A DNA stretch of 64,000 bases. It comes from Ignavibacteriota bacterium (GTDB lineage: Bacteria > Bacteroidota > Ignavibacteria > UBA10030). Below are positions 1 to 26,556 of this stretch, in pieces. The notes below the pieces were generated by a model. It ran no database searches. It had not been told where the DNA came from and was given only the letters and a program-made list of their open reading frames with translations. The position numbers and the translations under genes are program-made. The stretch covers positions 12,579 to 76,578 of the forward strand of contig CAVYML010000009.1 in assembly GCA_963769605.1 (NCBI GenBank), read 5' to 3'. Every line of letters starts with the position of its first letter. Position 1 is the stretch's first letter.

Positions 1-2287
1 TCAGGATCCTGTTGGTGCCTTCCAGCTTCGCTTTATCCCCCGCCGGATCTTTGGACGCGTTCAGTGCAAGGATTTTCACTTTCGAATCGGAGAAGAGAAT
101 TTTCTCCAGCTCGAGAAGAATTTCCTTCATAATGCTCTTTTCATCCGGATCATCCAGCACATAGCTGTTGGGCTGAAAATCGATTTTATTCCCGATATAT
201 TTCAAAAGAGCAGCTTTGCCGTATTTTGCGGCAATTGCGTTGAAATCAAGGTTCTTGATCGACGGTATATTCTTATAGATTTGCGGAAGCAGGTTCTCGT
301 AAATCTTCGTAAATGCCTTGCTTGCGATGAAGCTTTTTAAATCCGTGCAGCTTCCGACATTCTCGTAAAATTCAAAAACAGAATTTTTCGAACCGCGGAT
401 CGTATTAATCGATACGCCGGATTCTTTCGGGAACGCATGATACAGTGTCTGGATATTGCTGATTGTCAGACTGTTCTTGGATGTTATCTTGAGATTTTTA
501 ATAACATCGAAGTCGGCCAGAACCGAATCGACGAATTCCATATCCGACGATGTCCTGAAGATTTCGTCCAGAATATCTTCCGTCCTTTTTTCCTTTGTTT
601 CCGGATTTGTTTTCGCTTCGTAGAACAGTTTCCAGTACTTGAGAACGATCCGGAGAGAGTTTTCAAATTCCTTTGAAAAAATATCGTAGCTCCGGTCCGA
701 ACCTTCGACATAATCACCGAGAGAGAACCGCAGAAATCCGGTCAGGTACGGAACCACCGAAATGCCGCGCTGCTCTGCAAGCTTTTTCGTAAATTTCTCA
801 AGGTCCTGATAGGAGAAAAATTCTTTCAAAAGGATATTGAAGAGGAACGACCCGTCGGAATCGAGAACTTCAAAATATTTTTCGGCTTGATTTTTTTCTA
901 TCACCTCTTTGGCTATATCTTTTGCCATGTGAAGTCTTTTGATGCACTCACGGCGGAAGAGTTTATTCACTCTAAATGTGTTGATTTCCTTAACGATGTG
1001 ATCCTGATAATACTTGTAGAACGGTTCGCCTTTATATTTAAAATCGTCCGGCAGACCGAGCACATCGAGCTTATCGAGCGACACCAGTTCTTCCAGGAGG
1101 AACACGTGCAGGGGGCTCCCCTCGAACGGCGAAAACCGTTTGATGGGATGATTTTTCTTTTCTCCGGACTTCCTCTCGTCGTAGCTGTCCAATTCGTCGA
1201 TAATATAATTTTCAATCAGCGCTTTTATTTTATACCGCGAGGCGTCCTTCGGAAGTTCCGACTCCATGTTGTCTTTAATTTTTTTCGAAAGCTGCGCAGC
1301 TTCAATTGTATTGACCAGCATAAAGAGGGAATTTGTGTTTCCCTTTTCAATACTGTACTGTTTCCTTGCAAATTCGATAACGTCTTCCCGTGCCGGCGTT
1401 GCAATGAGGGACCCGAGCCGGTTTCCCGTGGCACCGAGATTCTTTGTCGTCGAGAGCGACGAAACGATGCTGATGTTCGGAAGCGAAGTTATATTGTTCA
1501 TCACGTACCGGGAAATGGTACGCCATTTCGGTTCTTCCGGATCGTCGATTTTAATCGCATCGCTGTACGCTTCATCCAGAAGCAGCGTCACCTTATTATT
1601 GTTCATAAACTTAAGGAACTTGATAAGCGCCGGATTGTTGAAATCCGTATATCCGGACGGATTGGACGGATCGTTTATGATGATCGTAAGGTTTTCGCAA
1701 AACCGGTCCCACAGCGTTCCGGTATCGTCGAACAACTGAAATGTGTTTTTCATCCTGTTCAAACGATGGAATAACCGTTCAAAATCGATCCGCTTGTCGT
1801 TGGTCAGTCCGACCTCGAGATCGAACGGATTGATGTCAAACCGGTCGACGGGGAACAGATCTTTGTATTCCCATGAAGCTTCCGTATTGAAAACGATATA
1901 CGGCTTGAGAGCAGTGTTGAACAGAATATCTCGGATGATCATCTGCACATCGTCCGCGATAGAAGTGATATCCAGATTCACCAAATTGTTGATGAATTCT
2001 TTGATTATTTTTTGTTCTTCCGGCGATTTCTTTTGATACGTGTCGTGAATGCCGATATCGATCAGGAAATTTGTAAACCTTCCCTTATTATTCGATTCAT
2101 TCTCGACCTTTGTGATAAATTCCTTGTATTTTTCCAGGAATAAATTGATGCCAAAATTTTTATGATAATGGTTCCTCAGCGTCCGCTGGTATGTATTCGG
2201 AATGATATCAATAATCGTCTTGCACTTTTCGACGATCTTCGCTTCGATGGTTTTTAAGCTCCGCTGAAGCAGGTAGACGCCGTACAT
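1..2287 (-). CDS. Large multidomain protein with a class I/II aminotransferase-fold (PLP-dependent) domain carrying large insertions; partial, continues beyond window start
   Basis: Uninterrupted minus-strand frame from about 2500 down to position 1; it is absent from the ORF track because it has no stop in the window. Translation contains NDPSNPSG, LLLDEAYSD, SLSTTKNLGATGNRLGS and GISVVPYLTGF motifs typical of aminotransferase class I/II. First ATG at 2287, GTG at 2338. The frame is open upstream and overlaps the 3' end of the 2401..3678 ORF. Confidence 0.6.
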   Translation of the reverse strand, partial: MYGVYLLQRSLKTIEAKIVEKCKTIIDIIPNTYQRTLRNHYHKNFGINLFLEKYKEFITKVENESNNKGRFTNFLIDIGIHDTYQKKSPEEQKIIKEFINNLVNLDITSIADDVQMIIRDILFNTALKPYIVFNTEASWEYKDLFPVDRFDINPFDLEVGLTNDKRIDFERLFHRLNRMKNTFQLFDDTGTLWDRFCENLTIIINDPSNPSGYTDFNNPALIKFLKFMNNNKVTLLLDEAYSDAIKIDDPEEPKWRTISRYVMNNITSLPNISIVSSLSTTKNLGATGNRLGSLIATPAREDVIEFARKQYSIEKGNTNSLFMLVNTIEAAQLSKKIKDNMESELPKDASRYKIKALIENYIIDELDSYDERKSGEKKNHPIKRFSPFEGSPLHVFLLEELVSLDKLDVLGLPDDFKYKGEPFYKYYQDHIVKEINTFRVNKLFRRECIKRLHMAKDIAKEVIEKNQAEKYFEVLDSDGSFLFNILLKEFFSYQDLEKFTKKLAEQRGISVVPYLTGFLRFSLGDYVEGSDRSYDIFSKEFENSLRIVLKYWKLFYEAKTNPETKEKRTEDILDEIFRTSSDMEFVDSVLADFDVIKNLKITSKNSLTISNIQTLYHAFPKESGVSINTIRGSKNSVFEFYENVGSCTDLKSFIASKAFTKIYENLLPQIYKNIPSIKNLDFNAIAAKYGKAALLKYIGNKIDFQPNSYVLDDPDEKSIMKEILLELEKILFSDSKVKILALNASKDPAGDKAKLEGTNRIL

Positions 2288-11196: not shown

Positions 11197-11958
11197 TCAT
11201 TGAGCTACTCCCTCCTTCTTCTTCACCGCCGGAAATAAAAACGCTACAATCAATGCCAGCAAGGCATGAAAAAACACCAATGTATAGCCGGTAGGAAGAT
11301 CGAGGTTATAAGAAACTGCAATCGATAACAGATTCACCGCCGTTCCTACGATCCATGCTACAAGCAGGAGTTTCCATTTATTCAACCGGATGGCAATGAA
11401 CGCCGGAGCAACGAGGAGAGAAAAAACAATGAGCACGCCTGCCAGCCTTACGGAACTGGTGACCGTAGCTGCAAACGACACGAAGAAAAGAGTATCTTTC
11501 CAGAATCCCTTCATGCGCGGGTACACAAATACGAGAATCAATCCGAGCAGTGCATACACGATTGCAGTTTCTATGATGTCCGACCATGGCGTGAAGAGAA
11601 TATCCGAAGCCATGAGCTTGTCGAACATTTCCGTGCCGTGAGCGGATTTGGAGAGCACGATGAACACTCCCGATATACCGAACGCATAGAGCAATCCGAT
11701 AAACGCCTCATGCGAGGCGGTCCGTTTGGCTGCAAGCGCTATGAGCAGTCCGGCAAGAAGAGCAAACGTCAGTGAAACGGGATACAAATACTGACCATCC
11801 AGAAAAAGAATGGAACATGCCGCTCCCAGAGCGGACATCTGCCCTATGGCAAGGTCTGTAAAAATAATTCCCCTCCGGATAATCTCCAGTCCGAAGAAGG
11901 AGTGAATTCCGAGCAGCACCACGGAAAGAACGAATGCGGACAGGAGAATATCAGCCAT
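11197..11958 (-). CDS. znuB: Metal (Zn/Mn) ABC transporter permease, ABC-3/ZnuB family
   Basis: 253 aa with 8 TM helices and ABC-3 permease architecture; overlaps the substrate-binding gene by 8 bp. Confidence 0.8.
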   Translation of the reverse strand: MADILLSAFVLSVVLLGIHSFFGLEIIRRGIIFTDLAIGQMSALGAACSILFLDGQYLYPVSLTFALLAGLLIALAAKRTASHEAFIGLLYAFGISGVFIVLSKSAHGTEMFDKLMASDILFTPWSDIIETAIVYALLGLILVFVYPRMKGFWKDTLFFVSFAATVTSSVRLAGVLIVFSLLVAPAFIAIRLNKWKLLLVAWIVGTAVNLLSIAVSYNLDLPTGYTLVFFHALLALIVAFLFPAVKKKEGVAQ

Positions 11959-12856
11959 TGGTCAGTCTCCTCACGATCTCATCAAAAACACTGAATACAT
12001 TATCCGCTTCTTTCACCGCTCCGACATCATGCGGCAGAATCAGAAGTTTTACATTAAGTTTTTTCGACAGATAAAGCGCTGCGTCCTGCGGATTGTACAC
12101 ATCCTGCAAAATGAATTGCACTTTTTCCCGATCGATTAATTTTTCCACGTCGGCGATATGCTTTGTCGTGGGCGGAATTCCTGGAAGCGGCTCGATTGTG
12201 CCGGCGATAACAAAACCAAACCGGTCTAAGAAGTAATCGAAGATCTTGTGATACTCGACGACCTTGACGCCTTTGAACGGTTTTAATTGCTCTTCCCATG
12301 TTTTCATTTTCTGCTGCCAGAGAGTAAACAATTCCTTGTTGTTCTCTTCGTAGAACGTCTGATTATCCGGATCCAGTTCACTCAATCTTTCGGTTATGGC
12401 TTTTGCAACGATGGGAATATTATCAGGATCCATGAAAAAGTGCGGGTTCCCTTCCGGATGCACATCGCCGAGTTCTCGGGAAACGCTTGTCGGAACGTCG
12501 ATTAAATGCACGTGCATGGAGAGATCTAAAAATCCGCGCTCCCCGGGCTGTACGGCGCCGTTGTTTGCCTGTTTGATGATCTGCGGCAGCCATCCGATTT
12601 CCAGCTGCCCGCCGTTGATGATAAGGAGATCTGCTTTCCGCATTTTGGCAATGTACGACGGTTTTGGAATGATGATATGCGGATTATAATCTCCACGCGC
12701 AAGCGAGACGACTTCGATCCTGTCCTTGCCGATACGCTGGGCAATATCGCCGATATAGCCGTAGGTCGCAACGACCTGCAACTGACCGGAAAAACCGAGC
12801 TGCCCGAACAGCAGCATTAAAAATAAAAGTTTAATAGATTTCATAAAAGACTCCAT
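11951..12856 (-). CDS. znuA: Metal ABC transporter substrate-binding protein, ZnuA/TroA family
   Basis: Signal peptide and cluster-9 SBP fold with a His-rich metal site (HPHFFMDPDN, HVHLID); no ATPase gene in the operon. Confidence 0.8.
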   Translation of the reverse strand: MESFMKSIKLLFLMLLFGQLGFSGQLQVVATYGYIGDIAQRIGKDRIEVVSLARGDYNPHIIIPKPSYIAKMRKADLLIINGGQLEIGWLPQIIKQANNGAVQPGERGFLDLSMHVHLIDVPTSVSRELGDVHPEGNPHFFMDPDNIPIVAKAITERLSELDPDNQTFYEENNKELFTLWQQKMKTWEEQLKPFKGVKVVEYHKIFDYFLDRFGFVIAGTIEPLPGIPPTTKHIADVEKLIDREKVQFILQDVYNPQDAALYLSKKLNVKLLILPHDVGAVKEADNVFSVFDEIVRRLTNG

Positions 12857-13135
12857 ATTATTTACAATTCACATTTTTTCAGTTTTCTGTTTTCCATTTT
12901 CCATTTGCAATTTGAATTTTGCAATTCTTAGAACGCATGTGCGCCATGTGCGCCGATGGTCAGATTCGCCTGCAAAATAACTTGCATGTACGGCTGCTGC
13001 GACCATCCGCCGCCGGAAACCGGCACAGAGCGGCTCTCGTCCCTATCGAACTGAAGACGCAGCCGTGAAAATTCCGTAGGATTATATTCTATCATTGCAG
13101 AATAACGCGGAAGATTTGACGGCATAGATATATTT

Positions 13136-14782
13136 CCCGACTTGTACACAGACGGATAGTTAAGATAAAAACATGCGAAATTAGTTTGAAACGCGTAAAT
13201 TTAACATATGGTGTCATACTAAGGACTTCGTTAGAACATGTTTCATATCCGTACGACAAAAACTGGTTCCGGCGGCACAGCAGTGCAAATTATTCGGTAT
13301 CAAAACCGGAAGATGATCATCATCAAACATCTGGGTAGTACACATGATAAGAAAGATTTAAAAGCCTTAAAAGAAACAGCTACTCTCTGGATTGAGAAGA
13401 CGACCAAACAACAATCATTATTCTCCAACGAATCAGTTTCACCTACACTACAACTCAAGCAATGTCAGTATGTTGGATTTCGCTATGGTTTGATCTACGA
13501 AAGTCTTTATCAACTGTGCAAACTATTTAAATTTCATCGGTTGCGAAACAAGCTCTTGGTAGATTTAGTTATTGCACGCATTATTGAGCCAGGTTCAAAG
13601 ACACAGTCAATAGAATTTCTCAAAGAGTTCATGGGAATAGAACATAAACGTCAGGAACTCTATCGGCAAATTCCAAGGTTTCTGGGTGTGAAAGATACAG
13701 TAGAATCTAAAGTACTGGCGGTTGCTGAAAAAGAATTTGCTTTTACCTTTTCCCTCATCTTTTATGATGTAACTACTTTATACTTTGAGAGTTTTGAATC
13801 AGATGATTTACGCCAATGCGGATTCTCCAAAGATAACAAATTCAATCAACCGCAAATAGTCCTTGGACTTTTAGTGACTATTGATGGTTTTCCAGTAGGG
13901 TATCAAATATTTGAAGGCAATAAATTTGAAGGACACACGTTAATTCCTGTTATTGTGGAATTTAAGCACAAACACAAGGTTGAAAATTTCACTGTGGTTG
14001 CTGACGCTGCTATGATAAGTGATAAAAATATTACCGCACTTGCCTCTGCTCATCTTCAGTACATTGTCGGAGCCAGAATAGCAAATTTGCCACTCAAGCG
14101 TATTGCGGAGATCAGCGCTCAACTTTATCAACGCGATGGCGCAACAATGCGTATGGCAACGGAGCTTGGTGATTTGATCTGTGAATTTTCTGCAAAACGA
14201 TTTGCAAAAGATAAACGAGAGCTGGAAAAACAAATTATTAAAGCTCAGGAGCTTCTCGATAATCCAGGTAGCATCAAAAAAGTAAAATTCATTACCTCCA
14301 AAGATCAAACATATACACTTCATACTGCATTAATAGAGAAGACCAAACTACTACTTGGCATCAAAGGCTATTACACAAATCTGCCGAAGTCGGAAGTCAG
14401 TGATAACATTGTCATTGAGCATTATCATAATCTCTGGCATGTAGAGCAGGCATTTCGCATTGCAAAAAGTGATTTGCAAATGCGTCCCATCTACCACTTT
14501 AAACAAAAGACTATTAAAGCTCATATTCTCATTTGCTTCATGGCATTAGCAATTTGTAAATATATGGAGTTAAAAACGGGAAGATCGACCAAGTCTATTG
14601 TAAAATTATTGAAAGGCGTTACAGATGCTATAATGGTTAATACCCTCACAGGCGAAGAATTTACTCTACGCTCTATACTCATCGATGATGTCAAACAACT
14701 CTTGATAAAAATGGCTCTGTTGCTTTGATTTGGCCGTATTATTTCCCCTCACACGCTTGTCATACTAATTTGGACAAGTCAG
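13136..14782 (+). mobile_element. IS1634-family (IS4-like) insertion sequence, about 1.65 kb, with 18-bp target-site duplication
   Basis: Direct repeat GACGGCATAGATATATTT at 13118..13135 and 14783..14800. Terminal inverted repeats CCGACTTGTACACA (left) and TTTGGACAAGTCAG (right). Confidence 0.8.
13238..14728 (+). CDS. IS1634/IS4-family DDE transposase
   Basis: 496 aa; C-terminal motif HNLWHVEQAFRIAKSDLQMRPIYH is the Y-x2-R-x3-E-x6-K signature of IS4-type transposases; intact ORF. Confidence 0.85.
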   Translation: MFHIRTTKTGSGGTAVQIIRYQNRKMIIIKHLGSTHDKKDLKALKETATLWIEKTTKQQSLFSNESVSPTLQLKQCQYVGFRYGLIYESLYQLCKLFKFHRLRNKLLVDLVIARIIEPGSKTQSIEFLKEFMGIEHKRQELYRQIPRFLGVKDTVESKVLAVAEKEFAFTFSLIFYDVTTLYFESFESDDLRQCGFSKDNKFNQPQIVLGLLVTIDGFPVGYQIFEGNKFEGHTLIPVIVEFKHKHKVENFTVVADAAMISDKNITALASAHLQYIVGARIANLPLKRIAEISAQLYQRDGATMRMATELGDLICEFSAKRFAKDKRELEKQIIKAQELLDNPGSIKKVKFITSKDQTYTLHTALIEKTKLLLGIKGYYTNLPKSEVSDNIVIEHYHNLWHVEQAFRIAKSDLQMRPIYHFKQKTIKAHILICFMALAICKYMELKTGRSTKSIVKLLKGVTDAIMVNTLTGEEFTLRSILIDDVKQLLIKMALLL

Positions 14783-16014
14783 GACGGCATAGATATATTT
14801 TTACCGCCAAGCGAGATGTCGTTCTGCATCAGCAGGTCGTACCGCACGCCGATTTCCCAGAGCTGGTCGAGTTTGAAAACAAGCTGTGCATAAAAACCGG
14901 AATTATGTTTATCCAGACTTTGAAGTGAATCGCCGCCGAATGATTCGTGCCTGTATTCCGTTCCATTCATGACACGATACATATATTCACTTTGAAATCC
15001 GATATATCGAATGGCATCGAGAGTGTACTTGATGGTAAGGTCTGCACCTGCAATATCCGTATTTGCAGCAACTGCGTTTCCAGTATCCCCTAAAGCAGAG
15101 AATCCCGGATCGGCGTTTCTTGTCGTTCCCATGGCATTGGAGATCCCAAACAAGATCGATGCGTCTTCGATATCGAATGATGTACGAACGAATCCGATAT
15201 AAAGATTCGGCCCCTGAACCGGGCTGACGGAAATAATGTTTTTCGGATCGCTGAATCCAGCAGTACCGAAGCTTTGCTGATTTTCGCCGTTTAAAACTTC
15301 CCCGCCGAGTACGAGAAAAAACGGTGTCGGTGCGACCCATGTGGCCTGTGCGCCGATTTCATTCAATCCATCCTCGCCGAATAATGCCATTGAAATGAGC
15401 GGCTGGTTGGCAAAGTCCCAATAATGTTCATGCTGCTCATTGACCCTGCCGAAGCTTGCAAGAAATTTTCCCGCCTTTATTTTAAAACCGTACGGCAATT
15501 TCCTCGTTGAAAAATAGGCCTCTTCCAGACCGGCGCCGTCGGGAGCAAGATCGATAACGGCAAAAAGATCGAAATACGGATCGACAACGGAATAGAGCGA
15601 CATTTCACCGTAGTTGAAATTCAATCCGCGCTGTGCGTTCAATCCGGAAGAACTCGGCTGGTTCAGGAAGGGATAGCTGAAACCTGGAATTGTCAGAGAA
15701 TAATATTTTTCATTTGCCATATCCCGTGCTACGCCGGAAACATCGAGGATGAGCGCAATATCCGGAACATATTTGGACTGATCGAATGCCGATCCTTCTC
15801 TCGATTGTGCCCGTAGTAAACCGGCGGACCAAACGAATAAGAGCAATAATGCAGGAATGCATGTTTTTTGCAGTTTCATAGAAACTCCTCAAAATTTTAA
15901 TAATGACGCCATTGACAACAGTAAAATTATCGGCGTTTGTGATACGATATTGCCGGATCCGAGTCCCACTGCTTTAAAAACAGCGGACGGAACCGGAAGA
16001 TTCCATTCTTGAGG

Positions 16015-16320
16015 TCACGAAAATTGAGGAGGAGCATGCGAAGCGAAAACACGCGTATGGAATGGATGACAAACTCTTTCCGGAAGTGAGACAAAGGCAA
16101 GAAGGACGGGTTCGCGATAGAGAGAGGAACCAGCCGCCGTCTGAATTGAAGGGGCGTAATTGGAAAGCTGGAACGTGCAAATTGTGCAATTGTCCGAATT
16201 TCCGCAATCATGATGATTGTGAAAAGCACTGACAGAAATGCTTGCCAGAAGCAACAAGAGCATCAGCGCCGGAACCGCCTTGAACAGCACACGGCGTTTT
16301 TTTATCAGCATTAGTTTCAT
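16015..16320 (-). CDS. Small secreted His/Cys-rich protein (DUF2946-like; FHNHHDCG...CTIC motif)
   Basis: Start MKLMLIKKRR at 16320 and a signal peptide; paralogous in architecture to 23489..23848. Both sit upstream of an outer-membrane channel gene and downstream of a decamer-repeat array. Confidence 0.5.
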   Translation of the reverse strand: MKLMLIKKRRVLFKAVPALMLLLLLASISVSAFHNHHDCGNSDNCTICTFQLSNYAPSIQTAAGSSLYREPVLLAFVSLPERVCHPFHTRVFASHAPPQFS

Positions 16321-16378
16321 TCCGTCTTTATAATAACGAATATAGCGTTGATTATCAAACACGCAATCAGTTAAGTTC

Positions 16379-16537
16379 CCAATCTGCGTAATCCAAGCAA
16401 TCATCTGCGAAATCTCCTATCTGCGTTCAATCTGCAGCCGGAGGCCTCAGAATGTCATCCCGTGTTAACGGGATTCAACATTTTAAATCATAACCTGTCT
16501 AATCAATCTGCGCCCAATCTGTGGAATCTGAGAAATC
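16379..16537. repeat. Degenerate decamer tandem-repeat array (AATCTGCGTA-like units), locus 1
   Basis: aatctgcgtaatccaagcaatcatctgcgaaatctcctatctgcgttcaatctgcag ... aatcaatctgcgcccaatctgtggaatctgagaaatc. Lies between divergent promoters of the small His/Cys gene (minus) and the fluoride-riboswitch operon (plus). Confidence 0.7.
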
Positions 16538-16569
16538 ATTGATAATGTTCAATGATTTGATTAACTTAA

Positions 16570-16632
16570 ATGAGGCGATGGAGTTCGCCTTAAAATATCC
16601 CGAAGGTTCATCGGGATTGATGACTCCTGCAT
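16570..16632 (+). promoter_or_regulatory. Fluoride riboswitch (crcB RNA motif)
   Basis: GAGGCGAUGGAGUUCGCC...AUCCCGAAGGUUCAUCGGGAU...UGAUGACUCCUGC matches the conserved aptamer elements, including the GGAGU/ACUCC pseudoknot; followed by a stem plus U-run and the crcB RBS. Confidence 0.85.
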
Positions 16633-16683
16633 CGAAGCGAATTGCTTGCGAGGTAGGGGTTTTTCGTTTTATGAGAGGATGAA

Positions 16684-17061
16684 ATGGTTCGCAATTATTT
16701 ATATGTGTTTTTCGGCGGCGGTTTAGGTTCTTCCCTCAGATATTGGCTGTCAGGCGTAATACCGCGCTACACGGGAAGCCAGTTCCCATACGGAATTTTG
16801 ATCGTCAATATCATTGGATGCTTCTTTATCGGATTTCTTATGTCGGCCTTGGAAGAACGATTTCTAATGAATTCTTCACTTCGTGTTTTACTTACAATCG
16901 GCATTATCGGCGGTTTTACAACCTTCTCGACATTCAGTTATGAAACCCTCGCAATGATGCGGGACAGCGAATTTTTAAAAGCTTCCCTCTACGTCGGGCT
17001 TTCTCTTACACTTGGTCTGGGCGGCACATATCTTGGTTCACTTATGGGCAAACTCATTTAA
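16684..17061 (+). CDS. crcB: Fluoride ion channel CrcB/FluC
   Basis: 125 aa with four TM helices and the GFTTFSTFS motif; immediately downstream of the fluoride riboswitch. Confidence 0.9.
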   Translation: MVRNYLYVFFGGGLGSSLRYWLSGVIPRYTGSQFPYGILIVNIIGCFFIGFLMSALEERFLMNSSLRVLLTIGIIGGFTTFSTFSYETLAMMRDSEFLKASLYVGLSLTLGLGGTYLGSLMGKLI

Positions 17062-17077
17062 CCGGAAAAGGTGATCG

Positions 17078-17428
17078 ATGAAACTTTCAGGCGACGGTAA
17101 ACTCTTGCGCATCTTTATCGGTGAATCGGATAAATTTCACCATCAAGCGCTCTTCGAATCCATCATATACGCAGCCAAGGAAAAAAAATTAGCCGGCTGT
17201 ACGGTCTTGCGCGGGATCGAAGGCTATGGCGCCGACAGCCATGTCATACATACGGCAAAAATTTTGAGATTATCCGAAGATCTTCCCATCGTGATCGAAC
17301 TCGTCGACACAGAGGAGAAAATCAGGGCATTCCTGCCTGACATAGAACAAATGATTGAAGCATCGGGCTGCGGAGCGATGATAACACTTGAAAAAGCGGA
17401 AATAATCCGATACAGTCATGGAAAATGA
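17078..17428 (+). CDS. DUF190 domain protein (fluoride-riboswitch associated)
   Basis: 116 aa; DUF190 classically co-occurs with crcB under fluoride riboswitches. Confidence 0.7.
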   Translation: MKLSGDGKLLRIFIGESDKFHHQALFESIIYAAKEKKLAGCTVLRGIEGYGADSHVIHTAKILRLSEDLPIVIELVDTEEKIRAFLPDIEQMIEASGCGAMITLEKAEIIRYSHGK

Positions 17429-17512
17429 TTGCGGACTTGAATATGTCGGTAAAACGAAACAATCCGGCACGGTGTGTGGATGCCAATGAACCCTGCTACG
17501 GAATAACGTTAA

Positions 17513-18832
<1,320 letters not shown>

Positions 18833-19023
18833 CGCTCGATGAGCGGATTGCAAAGATTTGGTGCAGATAATAAATTCCGCATTGAAAGAACAATCTGAGC
18901 AGTTGCCCTATGCAGGTGCATTGTGTTTTATATTTCGATAACGATCGGAGCGGCCTTTGGATTTATCGCTTCGCTCATGGCATTTGTAATAACATGGAAT
19001 GAATGAGAAAAGCATTAATTTGA

Positions 19024-19080
19024 AAACCAGCGGCTTTGGCGCGAATCTCTTCAAGCGGCTGGTTTTACTTTTCTGTTTTT
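19024..19080 (+). terminator. Rho-independent terminator candidate downstream of eno
   Basis: AACCAGCGGCTT...AAGCGGCTGGTT stem with one mismatch, followed by TTTTACTTTTCTGTTTTTTC. Confidence 0.5.
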
Positions 19081-19227
19081 TCTCTTATTGTCGATGCTGA
19101 TCGGCTATATCATTGCACGATATGGTATAAAATAATATCTCACGAAGAAAAATCAGGATTCTCAAAGGAAAGCAGTAAGCATTTATACTTGCTGCTTTCC
19201 AGCATCCATATTATCTGTGTTCCATCA

Positions 19228-19283
19228 GTGAAATCTGTGTAATCAACTATCTGCGTTTAATCTGCGTAATCTGCGCAATCATC
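19228..19283. repeat. Decamer tandem-repeat array, locus 2 (upstream of zupT)
   Basis: gtgaaatctgtgtaatcaactatctgcgtttaatctgcgtaatctgcgcaatcatc. Confidence 0.7.
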
Positions 19284-19360
19284 ATTGCAGCTGCTTGAAG
19301 AGATACGGAAAAATGCTTACTGTTTAGTACCAATGAAATTGTGAATAAAGGAGATCTCTC

Positions 19361-20080
19361 ATGATTGTAATGAGTATTGGTGCAGCTGCGTTTATCGCAA
19401 CTTTTCTCGGAGGATTATTTGCGCTCAAGTTTAAAGACAAGCTGCACCTCATCACGGGATTCAGTGCGGGTGCAATCATCGGCGTTGCGTTCTTCGATCT
19501 TCTTCCAGAAGCTGTTACCCTAAAAAATGAACATCAAGGAATTTCAACGATATCGCTCATGATCGGTATCGGGTTTATCGTCTATATGATTTTAGAGCGA
19601 GCGATTGTTGTGCATTCGTCTCATGAAAGCGGCTGTGAAAATTCCAGACATCGCGGTATTCTTGGTGCGGGCAGCCTCTCAATCCATAGTTTTCTGGACG
19701 GAGTGATTATCGGCCTTGCGTTCCAAATTTCCAATTCAGTCGGAACAATCGTAACGGTGGCGGTTCTTACCCACGATTTCTCCGACGGCATCAATACAGT
19801 AACAATGATTGTGCGAAGCAAAGGAGAACGCAGACAAGCGTTGCGTTGGCTGATTGCAGATGCGTTCGCACCGGTTCTTGGAATTTGCACGACATTCTTC
19901 TATTCTATCCCAAAAGAAGCACTAAGCATCGTCCTAAGCGTTTTCTGCGGATGTTTTATTTATATCGGGGCAAGTGATCTTCTCCCTGAAAGTCATCACG
20001 CCCATCCCAAGACTTTCACAACCTTCATGACGCTTCTTGGTATGGCAACACTCTATGCTGTTATACAAATTGCGGGGTGA
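19361..20080 (+). CDS. zupT: ZIP family metal (Zn/Fe) transporter
   Basis: 239 aa with 8 TM helices and HSxxDG/HDFSDG metal-binding motifs typical of ZupT. Confidence 0.85.
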   Translation: MIVMSIGAAAFIATFLGGLFALKFKDKLHLITGFSAGAIIGVAFFDLLPEAVTLKNEHQGISTISLMIGIGFIVYMILERAIVVHSSHESGCENSRHRGILGAGSLSIHSFLDGVIIGLAFQISNSVGTIVTVAVLTHDFSDGINTVTMIVRSKGERRQALRWLIADAFAPVLGICTTFFYSIPKEALSIVLSVFCGCFIYIGASDLLPESHHAHPKTFTTFMTLLGMATLYAVIQIAG

Positions 20081-20124
20081 GTGGATTGCTGGAAGTACTG
20101 GGGGAAAGTGATAAAAGATGAAGG

Positions 20125-20673
20125 TTAACTGTCCGCAATTATGCCTTCACCCTCTTGTGAGGTATCATGTTTGCAAACGACATCTTCAGGCCACAGCAAT
20201 TGCTTGCCGCTTGCTCTCATCTCATTCATGGTTGACCACATAAACCAGAACGCTATGCCGATACTGATCAAAGAATCAAATTCAGGTCTCCCCGTCATCC
20301 CGACAAGGATACTCGCAAGAACCGGTACTAAAGACACGTACGTATCGCCAAGGTTGTGAATGTACGCCAGCCGAATTGCTGCATTCTGTCTGCGAACATT
20401 CTTTAACGATTGCGCAACAAACCAGTTTCCTAACGCTGCAAGCAGTCCGACAATGGCCGGGGATAGTGCAAGAATCGGAACCGGATAAAAAAAGCGATGG
20501 ATTGCTTGAACAATAAGGATCGCACTTATGAAAATCAATCCGACAGAATTCAGAAGATTGGCAAATCTTTGAAGATTTTTAGAAAGCTTTGCCGCGAGCG
20601 TATAGACAAGATATAGGCACACAAGGGCGAGTTCATCTGAAAGATTGTGAATGCCATCCATAATCAGGCTCAT
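20125..20673 (-). CDS. Cation diffusion facilitator (CDF) family transporter, apparently lacking a canonical start and C-terminal cytoplasmic domain
   Basis: MDGIHNLSDE is the TM2 HxxxD motif. The in-frame upstream extension to about 20850 encodes a CDF TM1 (AHVRKSLAIASSLNSIIFVGEGIAGFKTGS) but contains no ATG/GTG/TTG. A G6 run lies at 20783..20788. Confidence 0.6.
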   Translation of the reverse strand: MSLIMDGIHNLSDELALVCLYLVYTLAAKLSKNLQRFANLLNSVGLIFISAILIVQAIHRFFYPVPILALSPAIVGLLAALGNWFVAQSLKNVRRQNAAIRLAYIHNLGDTYVSLVPVLASILVGMTGRPEFDSLISIGIAFWFMWSTMNEMRASGKQLLWPEDVVCKHDTSQEGEGIIADS

Positions 20674-20893
20674 GCTCCCTGTTTTGAACCCGGCTATTCC
20701 TTCACCGACAAAGATTATGGAGTTTAAGCTTGATGCAATCGCAAGCGACTTGCGAACGTGCGCTATGATTATTTCTAAATTTGGGGGGAGTGAACGATCA
20801 AGCTCACTCCCCAGGTATTCATCAAAAATATTTCGTAATTGCTCAGTGCATTATGAAACAATTGTTTTTTACTGGTTTTCAATCCCCCTTTTT

Positions 20894-20915
20894 CCCCCTT
20901 TTAAACAAAAGGGGG
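20894..20915. terminator. Stem-loop CCCCCTTTT-AAAC-AAAAGGGGG downstream of the TonB-dependent receptor gene
   Basis: Perfect 9-bp stem read directly. Confidence 0.45.
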
Positions 20916-20979
20916 AGACTCTGTAAGAGAGGGGGATTTTTAATCTTTTAAATATCACGTTGAGTAATTACAATATTTC

Positions 20980-23403
20980 TTAAATATGAACGGCAACTTT
21001 AAAAACAACGTTCCGTGGTTCTTCAAAACTTGCTGCGCTGAAATACGCACCTTTAATCAAATGTTCATGATCAAGCAAGTTGGTGACATAGATTGAAGGC
21101 TCAAGTGTAGCGCCTCCCGTCAAATGGAATGTATATCCTCCACCGATATTGAAAATCCATGATGGAGTTGTATGCGCAGCCTGATTAAAATCGAATAATC
21201 CAGTTCCAAACGAGATAGCGTTTCCATTTGTGAGCCCTGATCCGTAAATCGCAACAAGATTGGCAAACCAATCTTGGGGTTGATAATTGAGACCCGTAAC
21301 AATGGAAAGCCGTTGATCGTGATCGAGATCCGTTGCCGGCCCGTCGCTATCAAGCGGTAAGAATCCGCCGCTAATGAGACCGGTTCCGTAGGCGTGAATA
21401 ATCGATGTGTTCATATAACCGGAAAAAGGAATAACAGGATCGCTGTACGAAAGTCCAAGTTCAATACCCGTTGTACGCACTTGTGCAATGTTCACGGGGG
21501 TTTTGATTGCCGACGATCCGATGGTTTGATCATCAACTCCCGGTGTGGCATATTTGTAGAACACGTCGGCCTTACTGCGTAAACCGAATACGAATAGATG
21601 CGTGTATACCGCTTCATAAAAATCATCCCTCTCCGCCAGCGTCGGCACGAGTGCAACGTTTGAGCCGTTGAAATTAACCGCGATAGATTTCAGACCCTCG
21701 ATATTGGTCGGCATGAACATGCGTCCATAATACAAATAGGCCGTATTGTCCTCATCCATTAAAAAATTCCATCGAATGCGCGGACTAATTTGGCTTTGGA
21801 GAGGCATATCCGGAGCAATATGTTGGTCATATCGGGTGCCTAATTCGAACGATGTCCATTCCATGGGATGCCATTCAGCTTGCAGGAACAAGCCGAAATC
21901 CGATCCGCTAAAATCAGTTACCAAAGAAGGGCCAGTGTTGCCGGCAGAATCATGTGAAGTAAAATTTTCCACTCCGGTCGTTGCGCTGAAATTAAAGCCC
22001 GCTTTATACATAAACTCGTGAGAAATCCTCTTGTCAAACGTAGACCGTATACCCAGCGTTGTGAAACTCCGATTCTCTCCAATCAGATATCTGTTCGTGT
22101 CTCCGACAAATTGAGAGAGCGCAGGATCGTTGCTGCCCGGAGAGTAGATCAATCCGCCTTCGCGTGCATAAACACCAGCAAAAAAGTTTGATTCTCGGTC
22201 TGCATCCGCATTGAGGGTGCGGTAATACGAAAGAGTTTGAAACGAGTTTGTTGTGGTCTGCATATCATTGGCAATTTGCTCCACGGAATCAAACGGGATT
22301 TGCGTGTTCGTTCTGCCGAAATTCAAATTTGTCGTTATATAGTCAACGTCACTCAATATATAATCAGCTTTGCCGTACAAAAAATAATCCTGCCCGTGGT
22401 CATGAAATAGTTGTTCGACGGGCTGATCGATGCGGCGATCGGTTTCCTGGCGCGAGCCTGAAATAAAGAAGCCGAGATTACCAACGTGATCGCTCATCGA
22501 TAAAGCCTGGCCGTCGGAATTCAAAGCACGAAACGGCCCAACTCGTTCTGATTCTTCGGATGGATCAGACACTAAGTAGCTTCCTACATATGTCGAAGCA
22601 TCCAGATGAAATGCTCCGGTTGGCACTCGATTTTGCAGATCAATAATTGCGGCATTTTGTCCGCCGTATTCCGCTGAAAATCCTCCCGTGATAAATGTAG
22701 CACGATCTATAACTTTTTGATCGACGACATCATTGAGTCCGCCGAACACGCCAAGCGGGACAGGAAGCCCGTCAACGTAGTAGGTGAATTCTCCATGTTG
22801 CCCCCTAATGTGTACCTCGCCCGTCGGGGCGCGTGCTGCTCCTAAAATGTTTTCCTGTACCAGGTTCGTCATCTGAGCGGTCGGCGTAGGGTGAAATGTT
22901 TCAGATTCGAACACTTGGTTGCCGGTATTGAGATTAATGCTTGAAACGGCAAGTTCCCGCATCCCGACAACTTCCACGTCTTTTTCGGAGTTTCCTTGTG
23001 AGCGAAGAAATATCTGATATGTGGAATGATCGTTATCGATAACGATCGTGTCTGTAAAGGTCTTATAACCGACAAACCATGCTTGAACGGCATAACTGCC
23101 AGGTGCAATATCGCGAAATCGCGCCTGTCCGGCAGGGGATGTAACCTCTTCCGAAATAAACTTTCCATTTCGTTTTAATACGACACGTGCGAGTTCAATA
23201 GGTGTATTCCCGCTGGAATCGCTGACGGCCACTTTCCATTGAATGCCGCGTTCATTTCCGCTTGAGTTTATATCCGATTTATCCGGCGCTTCGGACGATG
23301 GTTTCAATATATAATTATAATGTGCTATTGGGTTCGATAAATTTTGTGCAAAAGAAAAATTAAAGAACACAAGCAAGGTTGTAAGAATAATAATTAAACG
23401 CAT
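20980..23403 (-). CDS. TonB-dependent receptor with N-terminal carboxypeptidase-regulatory-like domain
   Basis: 807 aa with signal peptide, CarbopepD_reg-like segment, plug and beta-barrel ending in an aromatic residue. Confidence 0.85.
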   Translation of the reverse strand: MRLIIILTTLLVFFNFSFAQNLSNPIAHYNYILKPSSEAPDKSDINSSGNERGIQWKVAVSDSSGNTPIELARVVLKRNGKFISEEVTSPAGQARFRDIAPGSYAVQAWFVGYKTFTDTIVIDNDHSTYQIFLRSQGNSEKDVEVVGMRELAVSSINLNTGNQVFESETFHPTPTAQMTNLVQENILGAARAPTGEVHIRGQHGEFTYYVDGLPVPLGVFGGLNDVVDQKVIDRATFITGGFSAEYGGQNAAIIDLQNRVPTGAFHLDASTYVGSYLVSDPSEESERVGPFRALNSDGQALSMSDHVGNLGFFISGSRQETDRRIDQPVEQLFHDHGQDYFLYGKADYILSDVDYITTNLNFGRTNTQIPFDSVEQIANDMQTTTNSFQTLSYYRTLNADADRESNFFAGVYAREGGLIYSPGSNDPALSQFVGDTNRYLIGENRSFTTLGIRSTFDKRISHEFMYKAGFNFSATTGVENFTSHDSAGNTGPSLVTDFSGSDFGLFLQAEWHPMEWTSFELGTRYDQHIAPDMPLQSQISPRIRWNFLMDEDNTAYLYYGRMFMPTNIEGLKSIAVNFNGSNVALVPTLAERDDFYEAVYTHLFVFGLRSKADVFYKYATPGVDDQTIGSSAIKTPVNIAQVRTTGIELGLSYSDPVIPFSGYMNTSIIHAYGTGLISGGFLPLDSDGPATDLDHDQRLSIVTGLNYQPQDWFANLVAIYGSGLTNGNAISFGTGLFDFNQAAHTTPSWIFNIGGGYTFHLTGGATLEPSIYVTNLLDHEHLIKGAYFSAASFEEPRNVVFKVAVHI

Positions 23404-23488
23404 ATTTCCTTCTCCTCGATATAGGAATGAATGAGAACTCCGAAAGAAAATTTTTCAGTGTTCCGTTTTTAAATTGTAAAAAGAGAGA

Positions 23489-23848
23489 TTAACCGAGAAG
23501 AGAAGGCGGACCGCGACGGGAGAAAGAACGAAAGAGATGGTCTTGAATAAGATGCGGAGATGTAATGGTCGGAGCAGTACCAACCACTTGGACCTCGCCA
23601 AAATCCAGCGAGATTTGATCGGGGGCGATTCTGCTGTGTGCTGAGAGACAGATACTGCATTCGGAATGTTCCGACAACGGAATCTGTTTGCAGTGATCGG
23701 CATCTTCATGCGGAAAAAACCGGGCTTCGAATGATCCGCTGGGGACAATGGGATGGTCATGGATGAAATCATGCAGTCCGAAACCGACAAGATGACTCGC
23801 AAGAATAAGGAGAACAAGTATTTTATTTTTTTTCTTCACGGCCATCAT
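23489..23848 (-). CDS. Small secreted His/Cys-rich protein (DUF2946-like; HDFIHDH...HEDADHC...CSIC)
   Basis: 119 aa with signal peptide; immediately upstream of the TonB-dependent receptor; paralogous architecture to 16015..16320. Confidence 0.5.
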   Translation of the reverse strand: MMAVKKKNKILVLLILASHLVGFGLHDFIHDHPIVPSGSFEARFFPHEDADHCKQIPLSEHSECSICLSAHSRIAPDQISLDFGEVQVVGTAPTITSPHLIQDHLFRSFSRRGPPSLLG

Positions 23849-23920
23849 TCTAAGGTGGTTCTTATTATAACGAAGATTTTAACGAGAAGTTCCAAAATAA
23901 TCAAGGTTATGTGCATCATT

Positions 23921-24032
23921 AATTTGCGCAATCAACTATCTTTGTACAATCCGTGAAATCTGCGTAATCAATCTGTACAATCTAATATCTGCGTACAATC
24001 CGTGAAATCTGCGCAATCAATCTGCGTAATCA
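23921..24032. repeat. Decamer tandem-repeat array, locus 3; includes a ~90-bp block repeated at 25003..25092
   Basis: aatttgcgcaatcaactatctttgtacaatccgtgaaatctgcgtaatcaatctgtacaatctaatatctgcgtacaatccgtgaaatctgcgcaatcaatctgcgtaatca; overlaps the pirin stop codon. Confidence 0.75.
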
Positions 24033-24926: not shown

Positions 24927-24997
24927 AGATTTGTTCCTTTTAAATCTAAAACAACGAACGCCGCCCGCTTGTTCCTCAATTTGACCGGCCATCTAAG

Positions 24998-25094
24998 ATC
25001 TGTGTACAATCCGTGAAATCTGCGTAATCAATCTGCGCAATCTAATATCTGCGTACAATCCGTGAAATCTGCGTAATCAATCTGCGTAATCAAT
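24998..25094. repeat. Decamer tandem-repeat array, locus 4 (upstream of pirin); ~96% identical over ~90 bp to locus 3
   Basis: atctgtgtacaatccgtgaaatctgcgtaatcaatctgcgcaatctaatatctgcgtacaatccgtgaaatctgcgtaatcaatctgcgtaatcaatac. Confidence 0.75.
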
Positions 25095-25361
25095 ACTCGA
25101 TCCCTACCCGTGTGGCGGTTTTGCACATCCCTGAATGAAGAAACCTTTGGCAGGTATCATTCGTTTTAAGTGTACATGGATTTAAGGGTTTCGCGTCAAA
25201 TTACATTTGCGATAAAAGCAAGGTTTGATTACATTAAAGAGTTACAAAATCAACAACGAAATCCTCTCATAACGTTCTGAAAATAATTTTCTCAAGAATC
25301 GTTATACCATTATTTACTCGTCCGGCATGAGATATATAGGAAAATCTCACCGCATCTGGAA

Positions 25362-25865: not shown

Positions 25866-26012
25866 AACCGCCGCTTTTCGGCAAATACCATGCCACCTGA
25901 AACTATTCCTATCTTGAAACGGTTGTACGGTTAGTGACAAATTCTTGCAGCCGTTGAGACAATGTATAATATCAATATTCCGGAATTTCTACATTTTAAC
26001 AATGGAGGAAAT

Positions 26013-26556
26013 ATGAAAAAATCCTTTTTTACATTGGCCCTTGCTTGCATTATCATGAGCATGCAAATAATTGCTCAAGATAACCATACGATGCAGCAGG
26101 TTCCCGTCGTTAAGCGGGCAATTGCAGTGATTACACCGACAAAAGGGAATACCGTGCACGGAACCGTGACATTCGAACAGGTCGATGGCGGTGTCCGGGT
26201 TGTGGCCAGCCTGACCGGATTAAAACCGGGGAAACATGGATTTCATATTCACGAATTCGGCGATATAAGTTCCGAGGACGGGAAGTTCTGCAGGCGGGCA
26301 TTTTAACCCGATGGGAATGCCGCACAGCATGCCGACGAGCCAAAAACGCCACGCGGGTGATATGGGAAATATCGAAGCTGATGAAAACGGAAACGCACAT
26401 CTCGACTATATCGATCCGGTTATGAAACTCGACGGGGATCATCCCATCATCGGTCATGCCGTCATTATTCACGAAAAAGAAGACGATTTTAAAACGCAGC
26501 CGACAGGAAATGCGGGGCCAAGAATCGGATACGGGGTCATCGGAATCGCAAAATAA
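26013..26556 (+). pseudogene. sodC: Cu/Zn superoxide dismutase (SodC) with frameshift at about 26286..26290
   Basis: Frame 1 gives the signal peptide and ...GFHIHEFGDISSEDGK; frame 2 continues SAGGHFNPMGMP...HAGDMGNIEAD...NAGPRIGYGVIGIAK. Deleting one T from AAGTTCTGC joins them into a complete SodC. Confidence 0.8.

Follow-up and report, generated by a model that had tools for sequence, protein, structure and literature searches.

What is the function of two small, histidine- and cysteine-rich open reading frames (ORFs), each of which precedes a gene for an outer-membrane protein? The question is raised by a 64,000-nucleotide stretch of DNA from an Ignavibacteriota bacterium (NCBI GenBank assembly GCA_963769605.1, contig CAVYML010000009.1, positions 12,579 to 76,578 of the forward strand). 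This whole stretch is referred to as the window, and coordinates are those of the window unless a related locus is named. An initial annotation described the two products, A and B, as paralogous periplasmic proteins that resemble the pairing of DUF2946 proteins with TonB-dependent receptors in copper uptake, and suggested that they could act as metallophore or metal-delivery adaptors. The analysis presented here points to a different role. A and B probably belong to the CruR/CutF (DUF2946-like) kind of cis-acting leader peptides with a regulatory function; such a peptide would respond to a metal and stall the ribosome translating it close to the stop codon. The best-supported picture of the locus is a pair of metal-sensing translational leaders that control the outer-membrane uptake genes of a probable zinc island.

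Both annotated ORFs exist and both lie on the minus strand, as do the codons described below. Leader A, defined by its ORF and by a family of homologues, spans 16015..16320 and encodes 101 amino acids (aa; MKLMLIKKRRVLFKAVPALMLLLLLASISVSAFHNHHDCGNSDNCTICTF...FASHAPPQFS*). Its frame is open to 16404, and the homologues begin at the MK of 16320. The protein starts with the basic residues KKRR, which are followed by the hydrophobic stretch VPALMLLLLLASISVSA and then by FH; SAFHNHHDCGNSDNCTIC is present within the ORF. The export signal gives way to the cluster FHNHHDC-x5-CTIC, a spacer of 46 aa, the sequence HAPP, the tail QFS and the stop codon. The CxxC codons (C45-T-I-C48, 16177..16188) specify cysteines that are invariant in alignments A2 and A4, and the codons of the putative arrest site H-A-P-P (16027..16038) vary synonymously under invariant amino acids.

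Leader B, defined in the same way, spans 23489..23848 and encodes 119 aa (MMAVKKKNKILVLLILASHLVGFGLHDFIHDH...FPHEDADHCKQIPLSEHSECSICLS...FSRRGPPSLLG*). Here, KKKNK and the hydrophobic stretch ILVLLILASHLVGFGL form an export signal or membrane anchor, followed by H30, HEDADHC, C64-S-I-C67, a spacer of 44 aa, RGPP, SLLG and the stop codon. The motifs HDFIHDH, HEDADHC and CSIC are all found in the ORF. The CxxC codons occupy 23648..23659, and both cysteines are invariant in alignment A1 and in the wider alignment A3. The R-G-P-P codons (23504..23515) form a putative arrest site; according to PMC12992588, from the Chiba laboratory, RGPP is the strongest RAPP-like arrest core. In both proteins the export signal was read by eye from a basic N-terminus and the hydrophobic stretch that follows it, and the architecture that the initial annotation had recognised as shared, with signal, His cluster and CxIC, is upheld.

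Neither ORF is a chance reading frame, because both belong to conserved protein families in which the motifs are invariant while the codons beneath them vary synonymously. Across 110 homologues the reading frame and the length of the leader are kept, and APP and GPP are each encoded by seven different codon combinations. Family A has 68 homologues. The spacer between CxxC and HAPP is 46 aa in 67 of 67 members, HAPP itself is present in 67 of 67, and the tail has three residues in 66 of 67. Upstream of the CxxC, H34 is invariant and H36, D38 and C39 are semi-conserved. Most of the length is conserved, at 49–75% identity. The contigs that carry leader A are all metagenome-assembled genomes of Ignavibacteriota or 'Bacteroidota', several of which are named fen or SPRUCE isolates.

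The 20 homologues of leader B are 51–99% identical. A HMMER scan of 1.84 billion cluster representatives with family B returned 24 at E < 1e-3, and members that are less than 50% identical are still detected at the protein level, with E values down to 1e-24. The spacer from the CxxC to the proline motif is 44 aa in 36 of 43 members (range 41–45), and its sequence is poorly conserved. The motif is RGPP in 41 of the 43 and RAPP in the other 2, and the tail has four residues in 36. Additional invariant residues are H30, H47, D49 and C53. What A and B have in common is a precise architecture: behind the export signal come a His/Cys cluster containing CxxC, a spacer of fixed length, a C-terminal xxPP and, three to four codons further on, a stop codon. 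In the six frames of the 64-kb window, A and B are the only ORFs with [RH][AG]PP within 12 residues of the stop codon.

This shared architecture does not demonstrate common descent, and paralogy, which the initial annotation had asserted, is not adopted here. BLASTP aligns A and B over the CxIC motif only, with an E value of 0.098. Profile–profile comparison with hhalign gives a probability of 0.6% when narrow profiles are used and of 43–48.6% when broad ones are used (E ~2e-4; 1.8e-4 at 48.6%), with the alignment covering the signal, one His and the CxxC. Comparison with the Pfam model of DUF2946 (PF11162; gathering score 23.7 bits) gave no match for ORF A or ORF B of the window. Family A lies outside this model, as one of 29 members matches, with an E value of 0.098. 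In family B, 4 of 21 close members and 15 of 25 wider members match, the latter end-to-end and with a best E value of 4.1e-5. Scored singly, members reach 12.9–22.2 bits, which is below 23.7, and all of the matches extend to the last position of the profile. The values suggest a weak link of leader B to PF11162. Searches of Pfam and NCBIfam with A and B assigned no family, the sole result being a weak match of A to LIC10965_fam (E 0.17).

The published hallmarks of the DUF2946 proteins offer a closer comparison. CruR (Bp2923) of Bordetella pertussis is a copper-responsive upstream regulator of the TonB-dependent transporter BfrG (PMC9426467). It is a cis-acting upstream ORF (uORF): arrest at RAPP permits expression of the receptor, and copper, acting via the CXXC, relieves the arrest (PMC9426467). 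Members of the DUF2946/CruR family have an export signal, a CXXC and, at the C-terminus, a RAPP about three residues before the end, and among over 2000 DUF2946 proteins the CXXC–RAPP spacing of 45 varies by no more than 1–2 residues (Roy et al. 2022; PMC9426467). In A and B, the export signal and an invariant CXXC are present, the spacing is 46 and 44, respectively, and each ORF heads a same-strand operon of metal-homeostasis genes. The C-terminal motif occurs in leader B as the RGPP variant, which retains the Arg of the core; in leader A its position is kept and the Arg is replaced by His. The resemblance to a DUF2946–receptor pair that was noted at the outset is borne out by these hallmarks and by the sub-threshold matches of the wider B family; its copper context is not, as the neighbouring genes are zinc-like.

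A second point of reference is CutF of Rhodobacter capsulatus, a member of the same family, which is a nascent-chain copper sensor of the cutFOG operon and whose stalling opens a stem-loop that shields the Shine–Dalgarno (SD) sequence of cutO (10.1101/2022.11.11.516240, 10.1101/2025.02.05.636593). The filters used to find CutF-like proteins (Ozturk et al. 2023) are a Pro-Pro motif within 15 residues of the end, a signal peptide and a same-strand gene less than 1000 nt downstream. Both leaders have all three, with the Pro-Pro motif 3 residues from the C-terminus in A and 4 in B. The remaining CutF-like property, shielding of the next gene's SD by mRNA structure, is predicted in silico for both leaders.

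To obtain these structures, the last 45 nt of each leader were folded together with the intergenic region, both as minimum-free-energy structures and as alignment folds (RNAalifold). In leader A, the Pro-Pro-Gln codons, which are minor codons, contain the anti-SD segment CUCCUCAA (16024..16031, minus strand). This pairs with UUGAGGAG (15885..15892, minus strand), the SD region of the outer-membrane gene that follows, and the predicted probability that this SD is unpaired, P(unpaired), is 0.01. The CUCCUCAA/UUGAGGAG helix closes a domain that contains two internal hairpins, which are part of the RNAalifold consensus of the structured, 135-nt intergenic region (15880..16014, minus strand). These hairpins covary in family A: 13 pairs have changes on both sides, compared with 7.0 ± 1.5 after shuffling, and the observed number is reached in 0 of 500 shuffles. 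In addition, 85.6% of cells are paired, compared with approximately 40% in slid controls.

The arrangement in leader B is similar. Its anti-SD segment CCUUCUCUUCUCGG runs from the second Pro codon through the tail (23493..23506, minus strand) and forms, in the alignment fold of family B, a 13-bp closing helix with UCGAGGAGAAGG, the SD region at 23408..23419 (minus strand), for which P(unpaired) is also 0.01. The intergenic region, which spans 85 nt (23404..23488, minus strand), contains an internal hairpin that covaries. Intergenic lengths are 128–150 nt in the A loci and 80–94 nt in the B loci. A search of the intergenic regions for intrinsic terminators gave one weak candidate, in that of leader A, which does not exceed the shuffled expectation.

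CCU proline codons are inherently complementary to SD sequences, and the pairing was therefore tested in four ways: by recoding, by codon usage, by compensation and by control genes. In the recoding test, the real duplex is stronger than all but 0.2–5.4% of synonymous recodings in 10 of 15 A loci and than all but 1.5–2.9% in six of seven B loci. For the window itself, the duplex of leader A beats 98.7% of the recodings, and that of leader B has an energy of −17.4 kcal/mol, compared with a null mean of −11.6, which 2.2% of the recodings reach. As to codon usage, the genes of the window prefer CCG (50%) and CAG (57%) to CCT (19%) and CAA (43%). Leader A is written GCT CCT CCT CAA in most loci, with CAA in 15 of 15. 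Compensation is seen in locus L020, where the proline codons are CCG CCG, yet the tail AUACUCCUA pairs perfectly with UAGGAGUAU, and in locus L023, which lacks an SD and in which the tail GCAUAUCC pairs with GGAUAUGC beside the start codon, a duplex reached by 0.45% of recodings. In locus L021, CCUUCUUCUCUUC pairs with GAAGAGGAG. The control set, drawn from the window and five loci, comprised 45 SD-bearing genes, 10 of which follow a leader. SD occlusion is exceptional in these 10, with P(unpaired) values of 0.00–0.04 and a median of 0.005, compared with a median of 0.37 in the 35 others (nominal Mann–Whitney p 1e-6; the orthologues are not independent).

A mechanism is proposed that would combine the sensing logic of CruR with an output of the CutF/SecM type. 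Leader A would head an operon for the 428-aa outer-membrane protein, ZnuA and a ZnuB-like permease, and leader B would head the gene for the TonB-dependent receptor. When a ribosome arrives at the C-terminal R-G-P-P codons of leader B, or at the H-A-P-P codons of leader A, the Cys/His cluster would lie 44–46 residues behind, just out of the exit tunnel. The codons of the pause site and tail would double as the anti-SD strand of the long-range helix that buries the downstream ribosome-binding site (RBS). As the paused ribosome would occupy this strand, it would keep the helix open and leave the RBS free, and the channel would be translated. Once the pause is released, termination would follow three to four codons on, the helix would re-form and translation of the channel would be switched off. 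By analogy with CruR, binding of metal to the emerged Cys/His cluster would release the pause, and the uptake channel would then be made only under metal scarcity. This CruR-like logic, in which metal leads to no channel, is favored because the cargo consists of uptake genes.

A 366-aa ORF (14779..15879) lies 135 nt downstream of leader A; it is the 5′ part (14783..15879, minus strand) of a gene for a 428-aa, secreted, beta-rich and putative outer-membrane protein, the orthologues of which are 66–89% identical and always come after leader A. The gene is split by an IS1634-family insertion (13136..14782, plus strand; transposase 13238..14728), which is flanked by an 18-bp target duplication, GACGGCATAGATATATTT, at 13118–13135 and 14783–14800. 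The 3′ part (12928..13135, minus strand) ends in GAHGAHAF. Removal of the element in silico restores a 428-aa protein with this ending. In this genome, the A operon's outer-membrane gene is inactivated by the insertion; among the related loci fetched, no interruption is seen in any contig that covers the gene.

The restored protein has a signal peptide and a C-terminal Phe. Its two His pairs, H150/H152 in NEQHEHYW and H423/H426 in GAHGAHAF, are invariant among the 427/428-aa proteins, even in the 30%-identical homologue of locus L007. Sequence and profile searches found no match to it in Pfam, NCBIfam or the Protein Data Bank (PDB), and the source records all call it a 'hypothetical protein'. 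AlphaFold models had pLDDT values of 28.8 from the single sequence and 32.4 from seven sequences; the latter is beta-rich and unreliable. Of the IS-disrupted, porin-like barrel that had been annotated here, the disruption is confirmed, and the barrel has neither a family match nor a usable model behind it. The operon continues with a ZnuA-type substrate-binding protein (11951..12856, minus strand; PF01297, E 5e-45), which has a His at the third metal-ligand position, and with an ABC-3, ZnuB-like permease (11197..11958, minus strand), which was assigned from PF00950 (E 6e-12) and from synteny. No ABC ATPase of the ZnuC type adjoins ZnuA and ABC-3 in any locus examined.

Leader B precedes a TonB-dependent receptor, as initially annotated. 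The receptor gene (20980..23403, minus strand) starts 85 nt after ORF B, and its orthologue follows leader B in seven loci. The receptor matches PF00593 (E 2.3e-13) and has an N-terminal CarboxypepD_reg domain; PF07715 (Plug) scores 18.3 bits, below the cut-off of 23.9, and the PDB holds no sequence relative at E ≤ 1e-3. Nearby are a ZIP-family metal transporter (19361..20080, plus strand), which recurs beside the leader B–receptor unit in other loci, and a truncated CDF cation-efflux gene (20125..20673, minus strand), whose 182 aa cover profile positions 25–198 only and which has in-frame stops just upstream. A split gene resembling Cu/Zn superoxide dismutase (25962..26306 and 26311..26556, plus strand) occupies two frames, reflecting a frameshift or an assembly error. 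A pirin gene is also found near ORF B.

Comparison with 20 related loci shows how stable this organization is. The order leader A, 427-aa protein, ZnuA and ABC-3 is found in every locus whose contig extends far enough, and in L005, L010, L017 and L018 the two units directly adjoin, running A, 427-aa protein, ZnuA, ABC-3, B and receptor. In L007, a homologue of the 427-aa protein (26% identical), ZnuA and ABC-3 come after a distant B-type leader (33% identical); elsewhere, distant leaders of the B type are found ahead of receptors or of an unclassified protein of 390 aa. Divergence is much faster in the leaders than in their cargo, with identities across loci of 35–76% versus 66–97%.

Several further observations were made in these loci. 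In the closest long contig (L001/L013, 13067..13370), the homologue of leader A is frameshifted and has been called as 81 aa without HAPP, and tblastn places the remainder in another frame. This frameshift and the split pirin and receptor genes on the same contig suggest assembly errors or decay. A third type of leader, of 87 aa, is present in L005 (10588..10851) and L006 (2956..3219). It has CIVC, a 43-aa spacer, LRAPP and a tail of 10 residues, and it precedes a second TonB-dependent receptor, which is followed by ExbB-ExbD-TonB. This leader has no Pfam match and no counterpart in the window. In L023, which is from a distant lineage, a B-type leader (606..962) starts 10 nt after the gene for ribosomal protein L28 (366..596) and precedes a TonB-dependent receptor. 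The L28 gene was considered as a marker of a Zur regulon and dropped as uninformative, its sequence being indistinguishable from that of an ordinary L28 with one Cys.

The metal of the island is most likely Zn(II), which is our best guess from the neighboring genes. Zinc is favored because of the context, comprising a three-His ZnuA, ABC-3, ZIP and CDF, because the loci have no copper-chaperone or oxidase genes and because of the extra His and Cys residues of the leaders. The third ligand position separates the zinc type from the manganese/iron type of cluster A-I binding proteins. In the ZnuA-type protein, the first, second and third N-terminal ligand positions are all His, the third aligning to Glu205 of PsaA/MntA. 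Likewise, the extra invariant His, Asp and Cys residues of the leaders would make up, with the CxxC, a Cys/His set typical of zinc sites. A lesser possibility, though one to be taken seriously, is that the sensed metal is copper, as it is for CruR and CutF, or manganese or iron. The DUF2946 members that have been studied respond to copper, CxxC is well known as a Cu(I) site, there is a gene for Cu/Zn superoxide dismutase close by (25962..26556), in L003 leader A adjoins a divergent HMA P-type ATPase, and the best PDB matches of the ZnuA-type protein are manganese binders. What tips the balance towards zinc is that the third ligand of this same protein is His and not Glu, the zinc-type pattern, that the window has adjacent ZIP and CDF genes, the former being met again in several other loci, and that the leaders' extra invariant His gives a Cys2His2-like ligand set. 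In addition, PCuAC, CopZ, CusF and multicopper-oxidase genes were seen in no locus, and it is already known that not every CutF-like protein is copper-specific. A literature search for a zinc-responsive CruR-like system returned nothing relevant.

The role of the leaders must also be weighed against three other explanations. If A and B acted in precisely the manner of CruR, stalling of the ribosome at xxPP would block Rho-dependent termination in the intergenic region, and the SD helix would be secondary or irrelevant. The leaders do resemble CruR, their cargo includes an uptake receptor and intergenic lengths are conserved (A 128–150 nt, B 80–94 nt), as compared with the 162 nt of CruR. However, the intergenic regions show a high degree of structure, with hairpins that covary, the pairing engages the SD itself, and base composition is neither C-rich nor G-poor (28 C and 29 G in the intergenic region of A, 15 C and 12 G in that of B), unlike typical Rho loading sites. 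A purely Rho-based read-out is disfavored because these regions are structured and not C-rich; we regard it as unlikely, and the Rho-dependent and SD-unmasking mechanisms could coexist. Less probable again is that A and B persist as stable proteins in the periplasm or anchored in the membrane, where they would bind metal and, like metallochaperones or adaptors, pass it to or from the channel, with the Pro-Pro motif and the spacing being structural. An export signal and an invariant His/Cys cluster in both proteins, the conservation of family A over most of its length (49–75% identity) and the strictly kept gene order with the channels would all be expected of an adaptor. Harder to reconcile with it are the fixed CxxC–xxPP distance across a poorly conserved spacer in family B, a motif placed three to four codons from the stop exactly as in characterized arrest peptides, and the divergence of the leaders, which is much faster than that of their cargo. 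RGPP is also strongly avoided in ordinary proteins (PMC12992588), and CruR and CutF are undetectable as mature proteins. The metallophore or delivery-adaptor role that was first suggested finds little room in this picture, given that the studied DUF2946 proteins are cis-acting arrest peptides and that the leader 3′ ends pair with the downstream RBS, with codon bias in support; the adaptor and leader roles are not mutually exclusive. Finally, the ORFs might be fortuitous and the conserved element an RNA leader whose peptide has no role. This is highly improbable: while the intergenic RNA is indeed structured and conserved, the amino-acid motifs are invariant under varied codons (seven combinations each for APP and GPP), frame and length are maintained in 110 homologues, and family B is recovered at the protein level among 1.84 billion representatives, with E values to 1e-24 at less than 50% identity.

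The leader-peptide interpretation, which we prefer, has several points weighing against it. That translation pauses, which metal is sensed and in which direction control runs are things that we infer, the pausing from sequence and the metal from the neighboring genes. Both window proteins stay below the Pfam threshold for DUF2946, and a Zur box was not identified. Among close relatives, family A is well conserved from end to end, as could equally be expected of a mature protein that folds and functions. CCU proline codons are inherently complementary to an SD of the GGAGG type, and the pairing statistics are nominal because of this complementarity and because the loci are phylogenetically related. 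When the footprint of a ribosome on the first Pro codon is masked in silico, the SD is freed only in part, with P(unpaired) values of 0–0.46. All 19 substitutions of the Arg abolish arrest in ApcA, ApdA, ApdP and SecM (PMC12992588, PMC10951233). As the Arg is irreplaceable in these tested arrest peptides, the HAPP of leader A may not arrest as RAPP and RGPP do. Leader A may contain a new HAPP arrest core, or may slow the ribosome through plain Pro-Pro, or may not arrest it at all.

The regions upstream of the leaders have features of their own. A promoter-like site, TTGATA-N17-TATTAT (16330..16358, minus strand; 10 of 12 matches), is conserved across loci and ends 9 nt before the start codon of leader A. 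A sigma-70-like promoter this near to the start codon suggests a nearly leaderless mRNA for leader A. A Zur/Fur box was one reading considered for TTTGATAATCAAYGC, a conserved sequence upstream of leader A; it was rejected, as the sequence is better read as the −35 element of this promoter. It has 8 matches in the window at up to three mismatches, compared with 7.1 expected, and no other significant copy. Upstream of leader B, a conserved GGAAC-N16/17-CGTTA box (~23865..23893, minus strand), which is also found in L001, L010, L014 and L018, resembles a promoter of the extracytoplasmic function (ECF) sigma type.

Short-repeat arrays precede both ORFs, as the initial annotation had noted, although they are not the regular decamers described there: the motif is AATCTGCG/GCAGATT (minus strand) at an irregular spacing of 9–29 nt. 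The window contains 11 exact copies, compared with 3.6 expected, and all are on one strand. One array lies upstream of leader A (16381..16512, minus strand) and another between the pirin gene and leader B (23929..24032, minus strand), where a 49-bp unit is repeated twice; further arrays of the motif were found near ZIP (19249..19275) and upstream of pirin (24991..25095). The two arrays that flank pirin share the 49-bp unit, and all four adjoin metal-related genes. Since they become sparse in close relatives and are missing from distant homologous loci, the arrays are considered lineage-specific. On the same grounds, a role as an operator for a metal regulator conserved with the system was rejected, and the arrays are probably not part of the leader mechanism.

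Divergent from leader A is a fluoride riboswitch (RF01734, 45.1 bits, E 6.5e-10) at 16565..16636 (plus strand), which precedes a crcB-like gene and a small ORF (16684..17061, 17078..17428). It was the only result of the Rfam scan and is unrelated to the leaders. A 53-aa ORF that overlaps the riboswitch (16521..16682) is probably spurious.

To our knowledge, metal-sensing arrest peptides have been characterized experimentally only for copper and only in Proteobacteria. How metal binding is coupled to the release or induction of a pause in arrest peptides is still an open mechanism. If the proposed reading is correct, the class gains members in another phylum and, probably, for another metal, and one locus offers a side-by-side comparison of a canonical RGPP core with a HAPP core. 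The output would be unusually simple to test, because the paused codons themselves are the anti-SD. The His that replaces Arg in HAPP raises the prospect that the arrest core itself is sensitive to metal or to protonation. The unannotated outer-membrane protein family would be a likely entry point for the ZnuA-type importer in Ignavibacteriota. Taken together, it is conceivable, and we suggest it only tentatively, that A and B are the first zinc-responsive members of the CruR/CutF class, that HAPP is a new arrest core, that the arrest codons serve as the anti-SD and that the 428-aa, His-rich protein is an undescribed outer-membrane zinc channel that feeds ZnuA/ZnuB. For annotation, such ORFs are better labeled as regulatory leaders than as periplasmic metal-binding proteins. 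The first observation of the pair was largely right and its DUF2946 lead a good one; copper and the delivery adaptor are the parts that are not supported.

The system can be placed among known ones as follows. Like Zur-regulated zinc uptake (ZnuD; ZnuK/ZnuM of Caulobacter; PMC4176598) and ZnuABC, the window links an outer-membrane receptor or channel to a ZnuA-type importer and a ZIP transporter. Known Zur systems are controlled transcriptionally (PMC4176598), whereas the control proposed here would be exerted by a translational leader, and no Zur box was recognized in the window. The arrangement also differs from ZnuABC in having no adjacent ABC ATPase and in including the 428-aa protein, which has no detectable relative among characterized families.

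The likeness to CruR extends to small, exported products, a CxxC, a spacer of about 45, a long intergenic region before an outer-membrane gene and a C-terminal R-A/G-P-P located three to four residues before the stop, which leader B has and in which leader A has His for Arg. Unlike CruR, A and B carry additional His, Asp and Cys residues upstream of the CxxC, and the genes around them are of the zinc type (ZnuA, ABC-3, ZIP) and not of the copper type. CruR works through Rho-dependent termination, in contrast to the structured intergenic RNA of the window, which buries the downstream SD, and it belongs to Proteobacteria, while the host here is one of the Ignavibacteriota.

The RAPP/RGPP arrest peptides provide a third comparison. 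In PMC12992588, RAPP and RGPP are described as depleted from proteomes, with an enrichment in small secreted proteins close to the C-terminus, and uORFs of this kind as over-represented upstream of TonB-dependent receptors, a class recognized bioinformatically. Leader B is exactly such a uORF, being small, signal-bearing and equipped with RGPP near the C-terminus in front of a TonB-dependent receptor; by its sequence, it is a further member of a class that is already described. Leader A departs from this class. It has HAPP where the Arg of ApdA, ApdP, ApcA and SecM is irreplaceable, and its cargo, an unclassified outer-membrane protein with a ZnuA-type importer (ZnuA and ZnuB), is a combination not listed for the class in what was available of PMC12992588 and PMC10951233.

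CutF is the closest parallel for the proposed output. A and B share with it a Sec signal, a Cys metal motif and a proline motif within the last 15 residues, they fall within the published list-B/D filters for CutF-like proteins, and in both cases mRNA structure shields the SD of the next gene, as predicted for the window. The metal motif is CxxxC in CutF and CxxC in A and B. CutF controls a detoxifying multicopper oxidase and metal turns it on, whereas the cargo of the window is for uptake and metal would be expected to turn it off. Finally, CutF uses a separate intergenic stem-loop, while in the window the codons of the putative arrest site and tail are themselves the anti-SD strand.

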